This document shows positions 3,169-62,460 of a stretch of 64,000 nt of DNA, one piece after another. Below the pieces are notes generated by a model. It worked only from the letters and a program-made list of their open reading frames with translations. It did no database searches and had not been told where the DNA came from. Numbering within the stretch: position 1 is the first letter of the stretch; each line of letters starts with the position of its first letter. The DNA comes from Candidatus Wolfebacteria bacterium GW2011_GWB1_47_1 (lineage in GTDB: Bacteria > Patescibacteriota > Minisyncoccia > UBA6257 > UBA9933): the NCBI GenBank assembly GCA_001029635.1, contig CP011209.1:618435-682434 (forward strand), written 5' to 3'. Both the position numbers and the translations under genes were made by a program.

Positions 3169-4279
3169 ACTATTCAACAATCGAAGGGGTGGGCATGCCC
3201 CGGATCATGTTTTTTTATGGACCCTTGGCATCCTTGTCGTTTTTGGGATCCTTATGCTTTCTAGTGCTTCCTCGGACCTGGGAAAGATTAAGTTTGATGA
3301 CACTTTTTTTTATCTGAAGCATCAGATCTACTATGGTCTTTTGCCGGGGATCGCCGGGTTTTTATTCGCGTCGTTCTTGTACTACAAACGATGGCAAACT
3401 ATGGCGTTATATTTGCTTCTCGTGAGTGTTGGCATGCTTTTGTTGGTATTTACCCCGCTTGGTATGCATTCGGGCGGGGCGACGCGGTGGATTAATATTG
3501 GTCCTGTTTCATTGCAACCTGCAGAATTGCTGAAGCTTACTTTTATCATTTACATGGCCGCATGGCTGAGTGGTAAGCGGACTAAACGACAAACGAGCTT
3601 CACTGAAGGATATTTGCCATTCCTTTCGATCTCAGGGTTTATTGCATTACTTATTGTATTACAACCAGCCACTACGACGGTTGCCGTCATTATGATGGCC
3701 AGTTTAATTGTTTATTTCATGAGCGGCGCAAAATTTAAATATATTGCCATGACGGTTGTGCTTGGGTTCGTTGCGCTTGCGATGTTGGTCGCGATAACCC
3801 CGTATCGCATGGAACGTGTCAAGAATTATTTTCGACAAGACAAGGTTGATGTCCTTGGGAAAGGATATCATTTGGAACAGGCGAAAATCGCCATCGGTTC
3901 GGGCGGCGCCATGGGGGTTGGATTTGGTCAATCTACGACAAAGTACAAATTTCTCCCTGAACCGATAGGGGATTCGATCTTTGCCGTTGTTGCCGAGGAG
4001 CTTGGTTTTGCCGGCTCGATACTCCTTATCTCCCTCTATATCCTGCTATTTACACGGGGGCTTCTTATTGCTAGCCGATGTAAGGATAAGTTTGGACAAC
4101 TTGCGGTGATTGGTATTATTTCCGTCGTTGCGATTCAAACGTTTATCAATATCGGAGCCATTTCTGGCATCTTGCCCTTAACGGGTGTTCCATTGCCATT
4201 TATTAGTTATGGAGGAACTGCGCTCGCTATTTTTCTTACCATGATGGGGGTTGTCGTCAATATATCGAAGCATGCATAA
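3155..4279 (+). CDS. ftsW: FtsW/RodA/SpoVE-family peptidoglycan glycosyltransferase (SEDS)
   Basis: 10-TM SEDS protein; adjacency to murG suggests ftsW rather than rodA. Confidence 0.8.
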   Translation: MHMNKLFNNRRGGHAPDHVFLWTLGILVVFGILMLSSASSDLGKIKFDDTFFYLKHQIYYGLLPGIAGFLFASFLYYKRWQTMALYLLLVSVGMLLLVFTPLGMHSGGATRWINIGPVSLQPAELLKLTFIIYMAAWLSGKRTKRQTSFTEGYLPFLSISGFIALLIVLQPATTTVAVIMMASLIVYFMSGAKFKYIAMTVVLGFVALAMLVAITPYRMERVKNYFRQDKVDVLGKGYHLEQAKIAIGSGGAMGVGFGQSTTKYKFLPEPIGDSIFAVVAEELGFAGSILLISLYILLFTRGLLIASRCKDKFGQLAVIGIISVVAIQTFINIGAISGILPLTGVPLPFISYGGTALAIFLTMMGVVVNISKHA

Positions 4280-4703: not shown

Positions 4704-5879
4704 ATGAGAATACTTTTTACCGGGGGAGTTACCGGGGGGCACATCATGCCTCTTATATCCGTCGCCGAGAAATTGCCTATTGTGGCACAGTCGAGAGGCA
4801 TTCCATCACTTGAGTTTTTTTACCTTGGCGTGCCGGGAATGTATGCGCAGGAGCTTACTTCTAAGGGGATTACTGTTTCCCGTGTTGCTTCCGTAAAGAT
4901 GCGTCGTGGAGCGATCATCCGTAATATTATCGAACTTCCGCTTTTAATCGTTGCTATTATACAGGCGCTTTGGCGCGTGTATTGGATCATGCCTGACGTC
5001 CTCTTTTCAAAAGGAGGACCGGGGGCATTGCCTGTTGTATTGGCATGTGCCTTCTATCGTATCCCGATCATCATTCATGAATCCGATTCTGTTGCGGGTC
5101 TTACTAACCTTGCTTCTGCCCGTTTTGCCAAACGTATTGCAATTGCCTATGCGACCGCAAAAGAGTCGTTTGTCGGTACTCCTGCTAGCGATGTTGCGCG
5201 GGCTGCCATTGAGCAAAAGATCGCGTTGATCGGCAATCCTATTCGTAATTTTTTCTTAACCTCTTTTGATACGACTGATCGCGCGACTGTAAAACGCATC
5301 ATGGATTTTGATCCTGCAAAGCCCCTCCTGGTTGTTATCGGGGGGTCTCAGGGGGCTGTGCGCATCAACGAATTCCTTCTTTCAATTGCAGAAGATTTAC
5401 TTACGCGCAATATTCAAGTTTTGCATCAAACAGGGGTCAACAATATTGGCTCCGTAAAAGGTGATCTTGCGCTTGTTATGAAAAAGTATTCAAACATGTA
5501 TCAGCATGCGTATCGGGCTGTTCCGTATTTTGAAGAAGATATAAAGGATGCCTATTGTGCTGCCGACATCGTGATCTCTCGGGCGGGGAGTGGGTCGATT
5601 TTTGAGATTGCAGCCATGGGCCGTCCAGCCATCCTTATTCCTTTGCCGCAAGAGATATCGCGCGACCAGGTAAAGAACGCATTCGAATATGCCGCGACTG
5701 GAGCCGCGATCACCATCGAAGAATCTAATCTGACCCGAAATATCTTCCTTGATCAGTTAGATCGGTTGTTGGCTAATCCGACAATGCTTGCCTCGATGGC
5801 AGCCGCGGCAAAGGCATTTTCCCGTCCGGAGGCTGCGGAAGTATTAGCCAAAGAGATTGTTCATTTGGGACGCCGATAA
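4704..5879 (+). CDS. murG: undecaprenyldiphospho-muramoylpentapeptide beta-N-acetylglucosaminyltransferase
   Basis: MRILFTGGVTGGHIMPLISVAEKL N-terminus, GT28 architecture. Confidence 0.85.
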   Translation: MRILFTGGVTGGHIMPLISVAEKLPIVAQSRGIPSLEFFYLGVPGMYAQELTSKGITVSRVASVKMRRGAIIRNIIELPLLIVAIIQALWRVYWIMPDVLFSKGGPGALPVVLACAFYRIPIIIHESDSVAGLTNLASARFAKRIAIAYATAKESFVGTPASDVARAAIEQKIALIGNPIRNFFLTSFDTTDRATVKRIMDFDPAKPLLVVIGGSQGAVRINEFLLSIAEDLLTRNIQVLHQTGVNNIGSVKGDLALVMKKYSNMYQHAYRAVPYFEEDIKDAYCAADIVISRAGSGSIFEIAAMGRPAILIPLPQEISRDQVKNAFEYAATGAAITIEESNLTRNIFLDQLDRLLANPTMLASMAAAAKAFSRPEAAEVLAKEIVHLGRR

Positions 5880-7769: not shown

Positions 7770-7790
7770 TGCGATTTTTCGCATAATAAA

Positions 7791-7820
7791 AGACCGTCTA
7801 ATGTTTAGTCGGTCTTTTAT
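7791..7820 (+). terminator. intrinsic terminator after S9 peptidase gene
   Basis: agaccgtctaa-tgt-ttagtcggtct hairpin followed by tttat. Confidence 0.55.
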
Positions 7821-7893
7821 TATGCGGCGTTTTGTTGTATACTAAATACCTAAACGAAGTCGAGATTTTTACGAATTTAGAAGTATTGTAGCA

Positions 7894-9385: not shown

Positions 9386-10648
9386 ATGCATGGAGCATAT
9401 CACAAGGGAATAGCCCTTTACGTATTGGTCACGATCATGACAGGTTCTTTTGTTGTGGTTCGCGGAGCGGAAACGCCTCCAGAGATCAAGACAGCTATCG
9501 AAAAGAAACGTCAGGAAGAGCAAGAACTTGGCAATCAGATCAAGGCTGTACAGGGTGCGCTTGAAACGACCGCCGGTGAAAAACAGACGTTACAACGTGA
9601 ACTGACACAGATTAATAGTAACGTGAAACAACTTGACCTGGGTATCCGCTATAGTAAGACTGCCGCTGAAAAGCTCGGCTATGAGATACAAGATACACAG
9701 TATACCATTGAAGAATCGGAGGAACGGATCGAAATCCGTAAAAAGGATATTGCCGAGATGTTGAGACAGGTTCAGCAAAAGGATTATTCCGAAGGACCGC
9801 TCATGTCCATTTTAAAAGGTAAAAGTCTTACCGATGCCGTCGGTGAAATCCAGGCACTAATCGAATTTCAAGAGAATTTTTCCCAGGAGATTCGCGAGCT
9901 ACAGGGTTATACGGTCGAGCTCGATCAACACCTCAAGACCGCCGAAGAAAAGAAGCACCAGAAAGAGGTCGAGACCGAGAATTTTAAAAACAAAAAGGTT
10001 ATTCTCGATCAGACTAAACAATATCAGCAACAGCTACTTGCACAGACCAAAAACAAGGAGCAGATCTATCAGAACTCGCTTACCGAACTGAAGAAGAAAC
10101 AAGATCAGATCGATATCGAGATCGCACGTTTGGAATCCGAAGCGCGCAAGGATATTAACATTAGTGCATTGCCAAAGGTTGATACCGGACCGCTTATGAT
10201 GCCTGCGCAAGGAAGGCTTACGCAGGGGTATGGCGCTACGCCGTTCGCATTGCGTAGTTATGCCAGTAAGCGACACAATGGTATCGATATCGCTGCACCG
10301 ATCGGAACGCCGATCTATGCAGCGTCTGATGGGCGAGTCGTCGGGGTCGCTGATCAAGACTTATATTGTCGCAAAGGGGCCTATGGCAAATTTGTTGCCA
10401 TAACGCACTATAACGGATTGACCACGCTCTATGCCCATTTGTCCTTGTGGAAGGTCAGTGAAGGTCAAGAGGTAAAAAAAGGAGATGTAATCGGATATAT
10501 GGGTAGTACTGGATTTTCTACCGGATCACATCTGCATTTTACCGTGTATGCGACCCCAACGTTTAAGATAGCTCCTGCGGCGAAAAGCTGCGGACCGAAG
10601 ATGCCGTTTGGAGGGGATCTAAATCCGTTTGATTATTTGGCCAAATAA
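9386..10648 (+). CDS. M23-family metalloendopeptidase with N-terminal coiled-coil (EnvC/murein-hydrolase-activator-like)
   Basis: long coiled-coil region then M23 motifs HNGIDIAAP...GSTGFSTGSHLHF. Confidence 0.8.
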   Translation: MHGAYHKGIALYVLVTIMTGSFVVVRGAETPPEIKTAIEKKRQEEQELGNQIKAVQGALETTAGEKQTLQRELTQINSNVKQLDLGIRYSKTAAEKLGYEIQDTQYTIEESEERIEIRKKDIAEMLRQVQQKDYSEGPLMSILKGKSLTDAVGEIQALIEFQENFSQEIRELQGYTVELDQHLKTAEEKKHQKEVETENFKNKKVILDQTKQYQQQLLAQTKNKEQIYQNSLTELKKKQDQIDIEIARLESEARKDINISALPKVDTGPLMMPAQGRLTQGYGATPFALRSYASKRHNGIDIAAPIGTPIYAASDGRVVGVADQDLYCRKGAYGKFVAITHYNGLTTLYAHLSLWKVSEGQEVKKGDVIGYMGSTGFSTGSHLHFTVYATPTFKIAPAAKSCGPKMPFGGDLNPFDYLAK

Positions 10649-10656
10649 AAACTTTT

Positions 10657-10782
10657 AAAAACCTCAAAAATTAGCGAACTGCGGCGTTACGGGGCCCAGT
10701 TGTGACAGGCGCCGTACACGTAAGTGCGTTTTCTGTTACAACTTTCCCGTGCCTCGCATTTCATCTAATTTTTGAGGTTTTT
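10657..10782 (+). ncRNA. 126-nt rod-like element bounded by 18-bp perfect inverted repeats, followed by a U-tract
   Basis: left arm aaaaacctcaaaaattag 10657-10674; right arm ctaatttttgaggttttt 10765-10782; internal helices such as agttgtgacag/ctgttacaact. Confidence 0.4.
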
Positions 10783-10847
10783 TATTTTTATTCCGAAATG
10801 TTTTTAATATGACGAGTTGATATGTTGTCTGGTATACTTATATCCAT

Positions 10848-11018
10848 ATGACAGATCTCATCAATCAAATTTTTGACATTGCGAAAGGCATCGCGCGTGT
10901 CGTTGAAACAAGCCTTATCGGTCCGCTGACGATGATATTCAAGAGCCTTGGGTTGCTGTTTGTGAAGGTGTTTGAGCTGGGGCTCATGGCGGTCAAGTGG
11001 CTTATGGCTCAGCTATAA
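10848..11018 (+). CDS. small hypothetical protein (56 aa, amphipathic/hydrophobic: MTDLINQIFDIAKGIARVVETSLIGPLTMIFKSLGLLFVKVFELGLMAVKWLMAQL)
   Basis: ORF below the 60-aa track cutoff, followed at once by a strong terminator; no clear SD, so confidence is low. Confidence 0.35.
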   Translation: MTDLINQIFDIAKGIARVVETSLIGPLTMIFKSLGLLFVKVFELGLMAVKWLMAQL

Positions 11019-11021
11019 CAA

Positions 11022-11052
11022 CTGTAAAACAAAAAATTTGTTTTACAGTTTG
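11022..11052 (+). terminator. intrinsic terminator (ctgtaaaacaaa-aaat-ttgttttacag + tttg)
   Basis: 12-bp perfect stem and T-run. Confidence 0.7.
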
Positions 11053-11201
11053 AAATTATTTTAAAACGGCGCGATGTATATATGCGTTGCAAATCATCCT
11101 GCGCGGAAGCATAGAGCCTTCAAGGGGATTTTTTGATGGTCTCATAATAAGATGTAATGCATATGATCGATGGATATTAGTGTATTGCATAAACTACCCA
11201 T

Positions 11202-11239
11202 ATTATCTGTCGTGAAACCTTCATTTTGCGACAGATAAT
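11202..11239. repeat. 11-bp perfect inverted repeat attatctgtcg...cgacagataat with a 16-nt loop, downstream of the 11299..11742 gene
   Basis: seen directly; could be an operator or part of a terminator. Confidence 0.5.
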
Positions 11240-11298
11240 GTAGGACAAAAAAGCCCTTTCCTTTCGGATTGGGTCTTGTTTGTTTTACATTGGTATAT

Positions 11299-12644: not shown

Positions 12645-12685
12645 GAAGGAACGTAGGAAAAAGGAATAGGGAATAAGAAAAAAGA

Positions 12686-12706
12686 AGGCCCGCGTGTGCG
12701 GGCCTT
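12686..12706. terminator. bidirectional terminator hairpin aaggcccgc-gtgt-gcgggcctt between convergent genes
   Basis: A-run before, T-run after. Confidence 0.65.
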
Positions 12707-12724
12707 TTAATTTGACTAGCTCTC

Positions 12725-13177
12725 TCAGTTCTTTTCGAACTTGCTCAAATCGAGCATTTTGAGGGCCATATCCAGGTAGCGGAGGTGTGGGGGGAAAATT
12801 CTTGACCGCATCGACCGCACCTTTTTCAACGTGAGAACGTGGACGATTTCAGTCACTCTCCCAGCCTCGTCCTCGTTTTGCTTCTTGAGCGTTTTTGGGA
12901 GGCGTGCTATCTGCGCCAGGAAGATCCCCGAGGTGTGTGTCGGTAGTACTCTAGGCTTGTCGATGAGTCGCATGTTCTCGGGTGCAACATGTACCCCGGT
13001 CTCCTCGTTAAGCTCCCGCTCGAAGCACTCCTCGAGTGAGTCGTCTTCGGGCTCCCCGTGTCCGCCCGGGAATTCGAGGCCACGCCCCTTTCCCGGCTTT
13101 TCGATGAACACGATCCCCTCCGGAGCGAGGACCATACCATACGCTCCGAATCTTCTTCCATCTGCTTGTTCTGCCAT
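12725..13177 (-). CDS. NUDIX hydrolase
   Basis: Nudix box GGHGEPEDDSLEECFERELNEETGV (Gx5Ex7REUxEExGU). Confidence 0.85.
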   Translation of the reverse strand: MAEQADGRRFGAYGMVLAPEGIVFIEKPGKGRGLEFPGGHGEPEDDSLEECFERELNEETGVHVAPENMRLIDKPRVLPTHTSGIFLAQIARLPKTLKKQNEDEAGRVTEIVHVLTLKKVRSMRSRIFPPHLRYLDMALKMLDLSKFEKN

Positions 13178-49382: not shown

Positions 49383-49445
49383 CAGTTTAGTATATATAAA
49401 AAACGATACTACTGTATCGTTTTTATTATATCATGGAATGCTTTT

Positions 49446-51017: not shown

Positions 51018-51022
51018 CTAAT

Positions 51023-51049
51023 AAAAATCCTCTCATCGAGAGGATTTTT
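51023..51049 (-). terminator. terminator aaaaatcctctc-atcg-agaggattttt
   Basis: follows the PspC-domain gene on the minus strand. Confidence 0.65.
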
Positions 51050-51050
51050 A

Positions 51051-51293
51051 TTATGCCGCGTTTTCTTCCGTAGTTTTCTTTGCTTTAGCTACCTTTTTAT
51101 GCTCACTTCGATGTGGAACAATGAGTGCGGCGAAGATGTACGCGATCACTCCCGGGAATATTCCCGTAAAGACTACAACCAGTATCCATACGACCCGCAA
51201 CAATACGGGGTCGAGATCAAAATATTCACCTACTCCTCCGATCACACCGCTGACCGCTTTATTCGATTCGCTTTTGTATAATCGCTTTGTCAT
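51051..51293 (-). CDS. PspC-domain membrane protein
   Basis: KAVSGVIGGVGEYFDLDPVLLRVVWILVVVF. Confidence 0.75.
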   Translation of the reverse strand: MTKRLYKSESNKAVSGVIGGVGEYFDLDPVLLRVVWILVVVFTGIFPGVIAYIFAALIVPHRSEHKKVAKAKKTTEENAA

Positions 51294-62415: not shown

Positions 62416-62460
62416 TATTGCTTCGTACAAAAACCGACCCATTGCGGGTCGGTTTTTGTA

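Follow-up and report, generated by a model that had tools for sequence, protein, structure and literature searches.

Sequence comparison indicates that the long hairpin at positions 10657–10782 of the window (the whole 64-kb stretch that was analysed, from a Candidatus Wolfebacteria genome) belongs to a family of rod-shaped structured elements that appears to be undescribed. It does not fit the usual definition of a MITE and, as a family, it is not a terminator. Among the candidates raised in the original prediction, a small or otherwise structured RNA is favoured by the existence of homologues, by compensatory covariation and by conserved loop nucleotides. The explanation that we prefer, to which we give an even chance of being right, is a co-transcribed RNA module of 3′ UTRs and intercistronic spacers, the core of which would be recognised by a conserved partner for the processing or protection of mRNA ends.

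Results

The hairpin downstream of the M23 gene is a continuous rod

The element starts 8 nt past the stop codon of a co-directional gene (9386–10648, plus strand), an ORF encoding a 420-aa protein with a coiled coil and an M23 peptidase domain (PF01551), and it lies in the 3′ UTR of that gene. The M23 protein is 100% identical to a protein of Candidatus Wolfebacteria bacterium GW2011_GWE1_48_7 (CPR/Patescibacteria). As originally described, the hairpin lies between the end of the M23 gene (10648) and a 56-codon ORF (10848–11018) that is followed by a hairpin of its own (11020–11050). Its arms, 10657–10674 (AAAAACCTCAAAAATTAG) and 10765–10782 (CTAATTTTTGAGGTTTTT), do form the predicted 18-bp perfect inverted repeat, being 100% complementary and 90 nt apart, and RNAfold returned one continuous rod containing every helix proposed earlier: GAA/UUC and UGCGG/UCGCA, ACGGGG/UCCCGU, and AGUUGUGACAGG/UCUGUUACAACU with its G-U pair. 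The minimum free energy of this fold is −61.5 kcal/mol, versus −30.6 ± 3.6 kcal/mol for dinucleotide shuffles (z = −8.69), and none of 200 shuffles was as stable. The 18-mer arm has no other match in the 64 kb, even when 3 mismatches are allowed (0.14 expected by chance).

Along the plus strand, the rod opens with the 5′ arm of the closing helix (10657–10674), a perfect 18-bp complement of 10765–10782 with a sequence specific to this copy: homologues carry a 14–18-bp helix of other sequence at this position, and all but one of its first 16 pairs covary. The conserved 5′ core motif (CGAACTGCGGCGTTACGGGGCCC, 10675–10697) pairs with 10743–10765, and its positions G16, C17, G18, A19, T22, C24 and G28–T30 are invariant in 12 sequences and conserved in 30. 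A variable middle helix comes next, with its 5′ strand at 10698–10709 (AGTTGTGACAGG), which pairs with 10732–10743 in the fold, and its 3′ strand at 10732–10743 (TCTGTTACAACT), placed by the fold and by covariation; across the family the sequence of this helix is wholly replaced and its pairing kept (11–17 double changes per pair in columns 54–57/135–138). Between its strands lies the apical module (10710–10731), a conserved GYCG..CGTAC hairpin with a variable loop, in which the CGTAC/GTRCG stem is conserved and G56, T57 and A58 are invariant in A1. The 3′ core motif (TTTCCCGTGCCTCGCATTTCATC, 10743–10765) is the most conserved stretch of the family and was the search pattern that retrieved the homologues from metagenomes and GTDB genomes. 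The 5′ and 3′ cores pair through short helices with small pyrimidine loops between them, and one U.G pair is kept in 28 of 30 copies. Directly behind the 3′ arm (10765–10782), which complements the 5′ arm, we confirmed the T-rich run (TATTTTTATT, 10783–10792), which together with the closing helix resembles an intrinsic terminator for the M23 gene. The minus strand of the hairpin also ends in a U-run (GAGGUUUUUAAAAGUUUUU).

A family with a constant core and arbitrary ends

Homologues were searched for in JGI metagenomes with the 3′ core motif and in GTDB species genomes with a relaxed form of that motif, and matches were filtered by a covariance model built from 12 members. At least 31 distinct members were recovered, including a second copy from the window's own organism. 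They come from Wolfebacteria (GW2011_GWE2_44_13, RIFOXYD12_FULL_48_21, RIFOXYB1_FULL_54_12 and metagenome contigs), a Parcubacteria MAG, a Minisyncoccia MAG, a Lloydbacteria MAG and two Saccharibacteria MAGs; two copies each were found in a Lachnospiraceae MAG and in a Thermodesulfobacteriota MAG (where each copy has an extra inserted hairpin), and one member lies on a GC-rich contig of unknown origin. Pattern matches in Sporolactobacillus, Methylobacillus, Rhizomicrobium, Planctomycetota and others were discarded as chance matches in coding sequence that lack the hairpin.

The element measures ~120 nt and consists of three conserved modules inside a 14–18-bp closing helix of copy-specific sequence. 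The consensus of the 5′ module is G-CGA-N-YTGC...GTT-R-CGGG-NCCC; the apical module is a GTCR-NN-GTAC hairpin with a pyrimidine-rich 3′ shoulder; the 3′ module reads TTTCCCG-Y-GCCT-Y-GCA-YYTCATC. Conserved unpaired positions are nearly all pyrimidines and sit in 1x1 to 3x3 loops of a continuous rod, and neither a junction nor a pseudoknot is evident in the fold. Literature searches on palindromic elements, on the sequences of the motifs and on non-coding RNAs of CPR, Wolfebacteria, Parcubacteria and Saccharibacteria yielded no description of it.

Helices covary, but the strand signature is ambiguous

An independent MAFFT alignment of 12 members, analysed with RNAalifold, predicted 40 pairs, 28 of them with compensatory changes. 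A 30-member alignment was fitted to the covariance model, and the independent 12-sequence MAFFT/alifold analysis (28 of 40 pairs) agrees with it; here 92.8% of cells are paired, versus 36–49% when partners are slid by 1–3 columns, and double changes occur in 33 of the 40 pairs. The covariation score of these 30 members is 0.617, versus at most 0.144 in the slid controls, and none of 500 shuffles reached the observed values. Small internal loops, unpaired bases and the U.G pair are conserved as well, which argues for selection on a specific shape and not on any hairpin.

The identity of the active strand is less clear-cut. The alignment has 47 G.U cells and 24 A.C cells, and 28 of the G.U cells come from the one conserved pair; outside it, G.U (19) is no commoner than A.C (24), so the usual signature of an RNA strand is missing. 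The complement strand folds more stably in 27 of the 30 members (mean −54.1 vs −46.8 kcal/mol, p = 1e-5) and also as a consensus (−56.5 for the complement vs −42.0 for the sense strand, alifold). Pyrimidines dominate the conserved loops of the sense strand, and purines those of the complement. We considered an apparent UUCG tetraloop in the additional hairpin of L057 (loci are given L numbers) as evidence for the RNA strand but set it aside, the loop being 3 nt or 5 nt long.

The element is inherited at the M23 site

Five of the eight relatives examined carry the element at the same gltX-M23-[element]-small-ORF site, with M23 identities of 86–61%. A homologous hairpin is in the same place in L004, L005, L007 and L011 (M23 identity 86, 83, 80 and 61%), and L009 and L010 (80% and 73%) have only a plain terminator there. 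The gap in L009 also takes the last two M23 codons, which points to loss of the element by deletion and not to an empty insertion site. Among the orthologues, the core motifs are constant and the closing and middle helices are altered by paired substitutions; the closing helix, for example, is CAAAAATTAG/CTAATTTTTG in the window and CTGGAATTAG/CTAATTCCATG in L005.

L008 has a different hairpin of ~105 nt at this site (3762–3960), with closing helix GCTAAACGGAAGCG/CGCTTCCGTTTAGC and apical CGTACAC/GTGTACG, which scores only 9 bits with the family covariance model and may represent a second, related element family. Two copies of a motif GGAAGCG(G)ATACCGTCAACCC were also seen in L008. In L011 (3930–4020) and L004 (3915–3945), the full element is immediately followed by one or two further, degenerate copies in tandem of just the 3′ motif, each with its own downstream 'arm'. 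The 56-aa hydrophobic protein encoded at 10848–11018 is kept in all relatives, with or without the hairpin.

Recovered copies are few, diverged and often placed behind stop codons

A model scan with filters off found one copy in the 64-kb window. A second copy of the window's organism lies between an HTH_25 gene and recA, on contigs that were linked to this organism by an encoded FtsZ annotated to it and by the shared sample series, and each of two related Wolfebacteria assemblies has at least 5 copies. Genomes carry two to at least five, perhaps about 8, copies, all strongly diverged from each other. The original prediction had tied a reading as a plain terminator to a single copy: the element is indeed single in the window, but it is multi-copy in the organism and its relatives.

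Fifteen of 31 copies start between −1 and 11 nt past the stop codon of a gene that runs in the same direction, and the upstream gene is co-directional in 21 of 27 cases. Several fill gaps of 6–26 nt inside operons (S6|SSB, i.e. rpsF|ssb; FtsA|FtsZ; PheS|PheT-like; HTH_25|RecA) and one follows FtsX; such copies, behind stop codons or inside operons, leave no space for a promoter of their own. Six copies run antisense to the adjacent genes (nusA, rplO, def and comM), and L013, L016, L018 and L079 are among those with no co-directional upstream gene. No conserved promoter was found beside any copy, and a promoter scan beside the window element yielded none usable on either strand, the sole good promoter being that of the downstream small ORF.

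On two long contigs, all copies share one strand, including copies whose neighbouring genes run in the opposite direction: five copies at 254–448 kb of Ga0076121_11 (L012, L016, L023) and three at 342–434 kb of LCHW01000001.1 (L036, L070, L078). This shared strand could reflect a DNA-level or replication-linked role. Closing-helix sequences are common to copies from different contexts or phyla (L014, L031 and L057a; L036 and L078), so the hairpin has occasionally been duplicated or transferred as a whole. A duplicated 220-nt block of the Lachnospiraceae MAG includes the element and has a terminator at its end. As separate observations, co-oriented element pairs bracket pyrG in the Parcubacteria MAG (L029, 3328–5682) and ~730 nt in the Thermodesulfobacteriota MAG (L057, 6036–7046).

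Probable termination is a local property of the window copy

The suggestion of an unusually long terminator or attenuator is plausible for the window copy, where a stable hairpin with its helix end at 10782 is followed by a U-tract and T makes up 11 of the 12 bases around its 3′ end. It does not extend to the family: with a T-tract taken as at least 8 T in 12 positions at the 3′ end, only 2 of 30 members have one, which makes termination a local extra of the window copy and not a family property. L005, the closest orthologue with the element, has no T-tract, and the orthologues L005, L004 and L007 have either no T-tract or a separate canonical terminator after the element; L004, L007, L034 and L052 have canonical terminators of gene-sense orientation 3′ of the element. 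A simple terminator scanner misses the window copy because its 'loop' is 90 nt long. Since only 4 of the 18 pairs of the AU-rich closing helix are G-C and the rod far exceeds the usual size of a terminator, termination is not assured even here; from its sequence, the window copy probably also terminates the M23 transcript.

The element matches neither a typical mobile repeat nor an Rfam family

A MITE with 18-bp terminal inverted repeats, also raised in the original prediction, is contradicted by three results. The arms are the least conserved part of the element and differ in every copy, conservation being internal; a search of the flanks for direct repeats found no target-site duplication in 29 of 30 copies, the window copy included; and the copy at the M23 site is inherited in place in five of the eight relatives. 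L077 alone is flanked by a direct repeat, of 15 nt (AAAGTAAAACACATG), which includes the stop codon of the upstream gene; at 4890–5095 (minus strand) of the same locus, the element is followed by another long hairpin (GCAAACCCATGCGG...CCGCATGGGTTTGC). The ftsA|ftsZ gap holds the element in RIFOXYD12_FULL_48_21 and unrelated sequence in the window's organism, but comparisons at L009 and at ftsA|ftsZ revealed no clean empty insertion site. Insertion into the loop of a pre-existing terminator was considered and rejected, given that the empty ftsA|ftsZ site of L082 has no palindrome.

BLAST against plasmid and phage collections gave no match to the element, two pattern scans of IMG/VR gave only chance matches that the covariance model rejected, and no transposase was found near the element. 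An integron attC site (R''/R' core sites RYYYAAC ... GTTRRRY, cassettes, integrase) was likewise discarded: the base of the hairpin is its variable part, and its neighbours are housekeeping genes (S6, SSB, FtsA, FtsZ, PheS, NusA, L15, RecA), not cassettes.

Rfam 15 gave no match at gathering score over the whole window, only microRNA and snoRNA noise on the element at E ≤ 10, and nothing beyond noise on 14 other loci and on tight cut-outs of two members. SRP, 6S and Y RNA were set aside, as no model matched and their architecture differs.

Discussion

A proposed module of mRNA ends and its rivals

In the scheme that we prefer, the element would be transcribed on the gene-sense strand as the 3′ UTR of the upstream gene or as an intercistronic spacer, and the transcript would form an almost uninterrupted duplex of about 45 bp. 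The core would be bound by a partner that is itself conserved and probably a protein, and the mRNA end would thereby be defined or protected, either by processing or by shielding from 3′ exonucleases; in the window copy, closing helix and U-tract would probably terminate the M23 transcript as well. Co-transcription with the upstream gene is suggested by the tight placement, the orientation bias and the gene-sense terminators downstream. Such a duplex, whether it closes an mRNA or separates two cistrons, has the classic form of a processing or stability signal (REP, ERIC, T7 RNase III sites). That RNA and not DNA is the active form, that the sense strand is the active one and that the role lies in processing or stability are steps that we infer. 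Against them stand the more stable complement (27 of 30), which also has the purine-rich loops more typical of RNA motifs, the lack of a G.U excess, the six antisense copies and the one-strand contigs. No partner protein was identified for the element and no partner gene is linked to it.

The rod might instead be a stand-alone, trans-acting RNA, either excised from the mRNA or transcribed from a promoter of its own, and forming the RNA part of an RNP (in the manner of Y RNA, 6S or vault RNA), with a closing helix that serves only stability or processing. Several diverged paralogues per genome, as for Y RNAs, a core conserved across phyla and a long terminal helix of arbitrary sequence, typical of such RNAs, fit this proposal, as do the terminator that ends the duplicated Lachnospiraceae block and the copies without a co-directional upstream gene (L013, L016, L018, L079); we nevertheless consider it unlikely, as there is no conserved promoter, many copies occupy 0–26-nt operon gaps, Rfam (Y RNA, 6S and SRP included) gives no match and no gene for a partner is linked to it. 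A minus-strand transcript, that is an antisense small RNA with purine-rich internal loops lying tail-to-tail with the upstream gene, would agree with the stability of the complement (27 of 30 and the consensus), with the U-run at its end in the window and with purine-rich conserved loops as the norm in RNA tertiary motifs. It would however need promoters that lie within the initial codons of ftsZ, ssb, pheT and recA in the tight intercistronic copies, and none was found; it would turn the conserved U.G into a conserved A-C mismatch, and in L004, L034 and L052 the terminators behind the element have gene-sense orientation, all of which makes this reading very unlikely. Still more far-fetched, and highly improbable in our view, would be a new class of self-cleaving ribozyme, acting at these sites to cut the transcripts of operons: the pattern of spread is that of small ribozymes (sporadic phyla, several copies, intergenic sites, a conserved core with freely covarying stems), but pyrimidine loops in a continuous rod, with no junction or pseudoknot and no similarity to any ribozyme model, speak against it.

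Other explanations do without a dedicated RNA. The hairpin could be a DNA-level palindromic repeat, either selfish or domesticated, like REPIN, ERIC or MITE sequences, which would spread as a whole, possibly as single-stranded DNA, into safe sites behind stop codons and then be tolerated or co-opted as a terminator. Its multi-copy, intergenic occurrence in both orientations, its sporadic phylogenetic distribution, the different ftsA|ftsZ occupancy of related species and the direct repeat of L077 are compatible with such an origin, and so are the closing-helix sequences shared across contexts and phyla, the lack of a G.U excess over A.C and the one-strand contigs. We rate this origin as quite improbable all the same: termini are not conserved, 29 of 30 copies have no target duplication, the recovered copy number is low and the gap in L009 points to a deletion; the element is absent from plasmid, phage and IMG/VR collections and has no transposase nearby; and at the M23 site compensatory changes keep both helices together with the small conserved mismatches, which neither decay nor palindrome correction would do. 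A merely unusually long intrinsic terminator of the M23 gene, finally, would account for a hairpin and T-tract right behind the stop codon but would leave unexplained the conserved core, the covariation, the operon paralogues and the 28 of 30 members without a T-tract; contradicted by the family data, it is scarcely credible. More broadly, and with doubts that outweigh our confidence, the family might be a previously unrecognised cross-phylum class of structured RNA with a dedicated partner or activity, or else a hairpin element oriented by the replication strand. Such a class would span CPR/Patescibacteria, Firmicutes and Thermodesulfobacteriota and could be, for example, a new RNP, a processing signal for mRNA ends within essential operons of minimal genomes, or a self-cleaving ribozyme.

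Comparison with known systems

ERIC/IRU sequences of enterobacteria (imperfect palindromes of about 127 bp) and the Correia elements of Neisseria are co-transcribed with neighbouring genes, and their hairpin affects mRNA processing or stability. The element resembles them as a rod-like imperfect palindrome of about 125 nt that is intergenic or intercistronic and occurs in either orientation and in several copies. ERIC/IRU and Correia elements, however, have conserved terminal inverted repeats, a TA target duplication and tens to hundreds of near-identical copies in one lineage, whereas the element has variable termini, no duplication, few and old copies, covarying helices and a range of several phyla. 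With REPINs (RAYT-mobilised REP doublets) it shares a long hairpin of two inverted conserved halves, an intergenic location and long vertical inheritance. REPINs have conserved REP ends, high copy number and a RAYT gene alongside; the conserved ends and high copy number of REP/REPIN sequences seem to be absent from the element, and unlike in REPINs its conserved halves are enclosed by an extra 14–18-bp helix of arbitrary sequence.

Like the RNase III signals of phage T7, copies of the element are paralogous hairpins with conserved internal loops, located between cistrons, and their duplex would suit a double-strand-specific nuclease; by analogy, a hairpin left at the 3′ end would stabilise the upstream message. 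T7 signals are however about 60 nt long, phage-specific and experimentally proven, whereas cleavage of the element is hypothetical and the conservation of its core is far above the known requirement of RNase III. Y RNAs, 6S and SRP 4.5S RNA are similar in size (about 100–120 nt), in having a terminal helix formed by both ends, a bulged conserved basal helix and a variable upper part, and in their paralogues. The element differs from them in lacking an Rfam match at E ≤ 10, linkage to rsr, the central bubble of 6S, the conserved apical GNAR or symmetric loop of SRP and, in most copies, room for a promoter of its own. To intrinsic terminators, the window copy is alike in its hairpin and U-tract past a stop codon and in a closing helix that resembles the genome's own; unlike in these, the ~90-nt 'loop' is a conserved structured core, and 28 of 30 members have no U-tract.

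The architecture is the opposite of that of a MITE, with a constant core set in a helix of arbitrary sequence. CPR/Patescibacteria genomes are tiny and densely packed, and to our knowledge almost nothing is known of their non-coding RNAs or of how their mRNA ends are set. The element keeps both sequence and shape across phyla, in two to at least five copies per roughly 1-Mb genome and inside operons such as rpsF-ssb, ftsA-ftsZ and pheS-pheT, and their upkeep in genomes selected for small size speaks for a genuine function. It is thus a clean and well-supported candidate for a new RNA family, with 33 covarying pairs (enough for an Rfam seed), and would give experiments on RNA processing a tractable entry point in organisms that are difficult to culture.

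Other features of the window

The 64-kb window contains no tRNA and no Rfam family. Unusually long (14–22 bp), perfect and A/T-flanked hairpins with 3–5-nt loops occur at gene ends at 7780–7826, 49392–49431, 51019–51053 and 62426–62460, and the closing helix of the element has the same look. The terminal hairpin of the 56-codon ORF (11020–11050) has 14 bp. This ORF is preceded by a promoter-like site, ATGACG-18-TG-TATACT (10809–10838), which predicts a transcription start a few bases before its ATG and thus suggests a leaderless or near-leaderless mRNA. A palindrome, ATTATCTGTCG-N16-CGACAGATAAT, at 11197–11244, also present at about 4190–4232 of L010 (73% M23 identity), may act as an operator or form a short hairpin in the gap that separates the small ORF from a convergent 147-aa gene. 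Gene orientation flips at ~12650–12725, with plus-strand genes up to 12644 and minus-strand genes from 12725 to ~61000, and GC skew is positive to ~12 kb and consistently negative from ~32 kb; this switch could mark a convergence (terminus-like) region or be a plain coding-strand effect.
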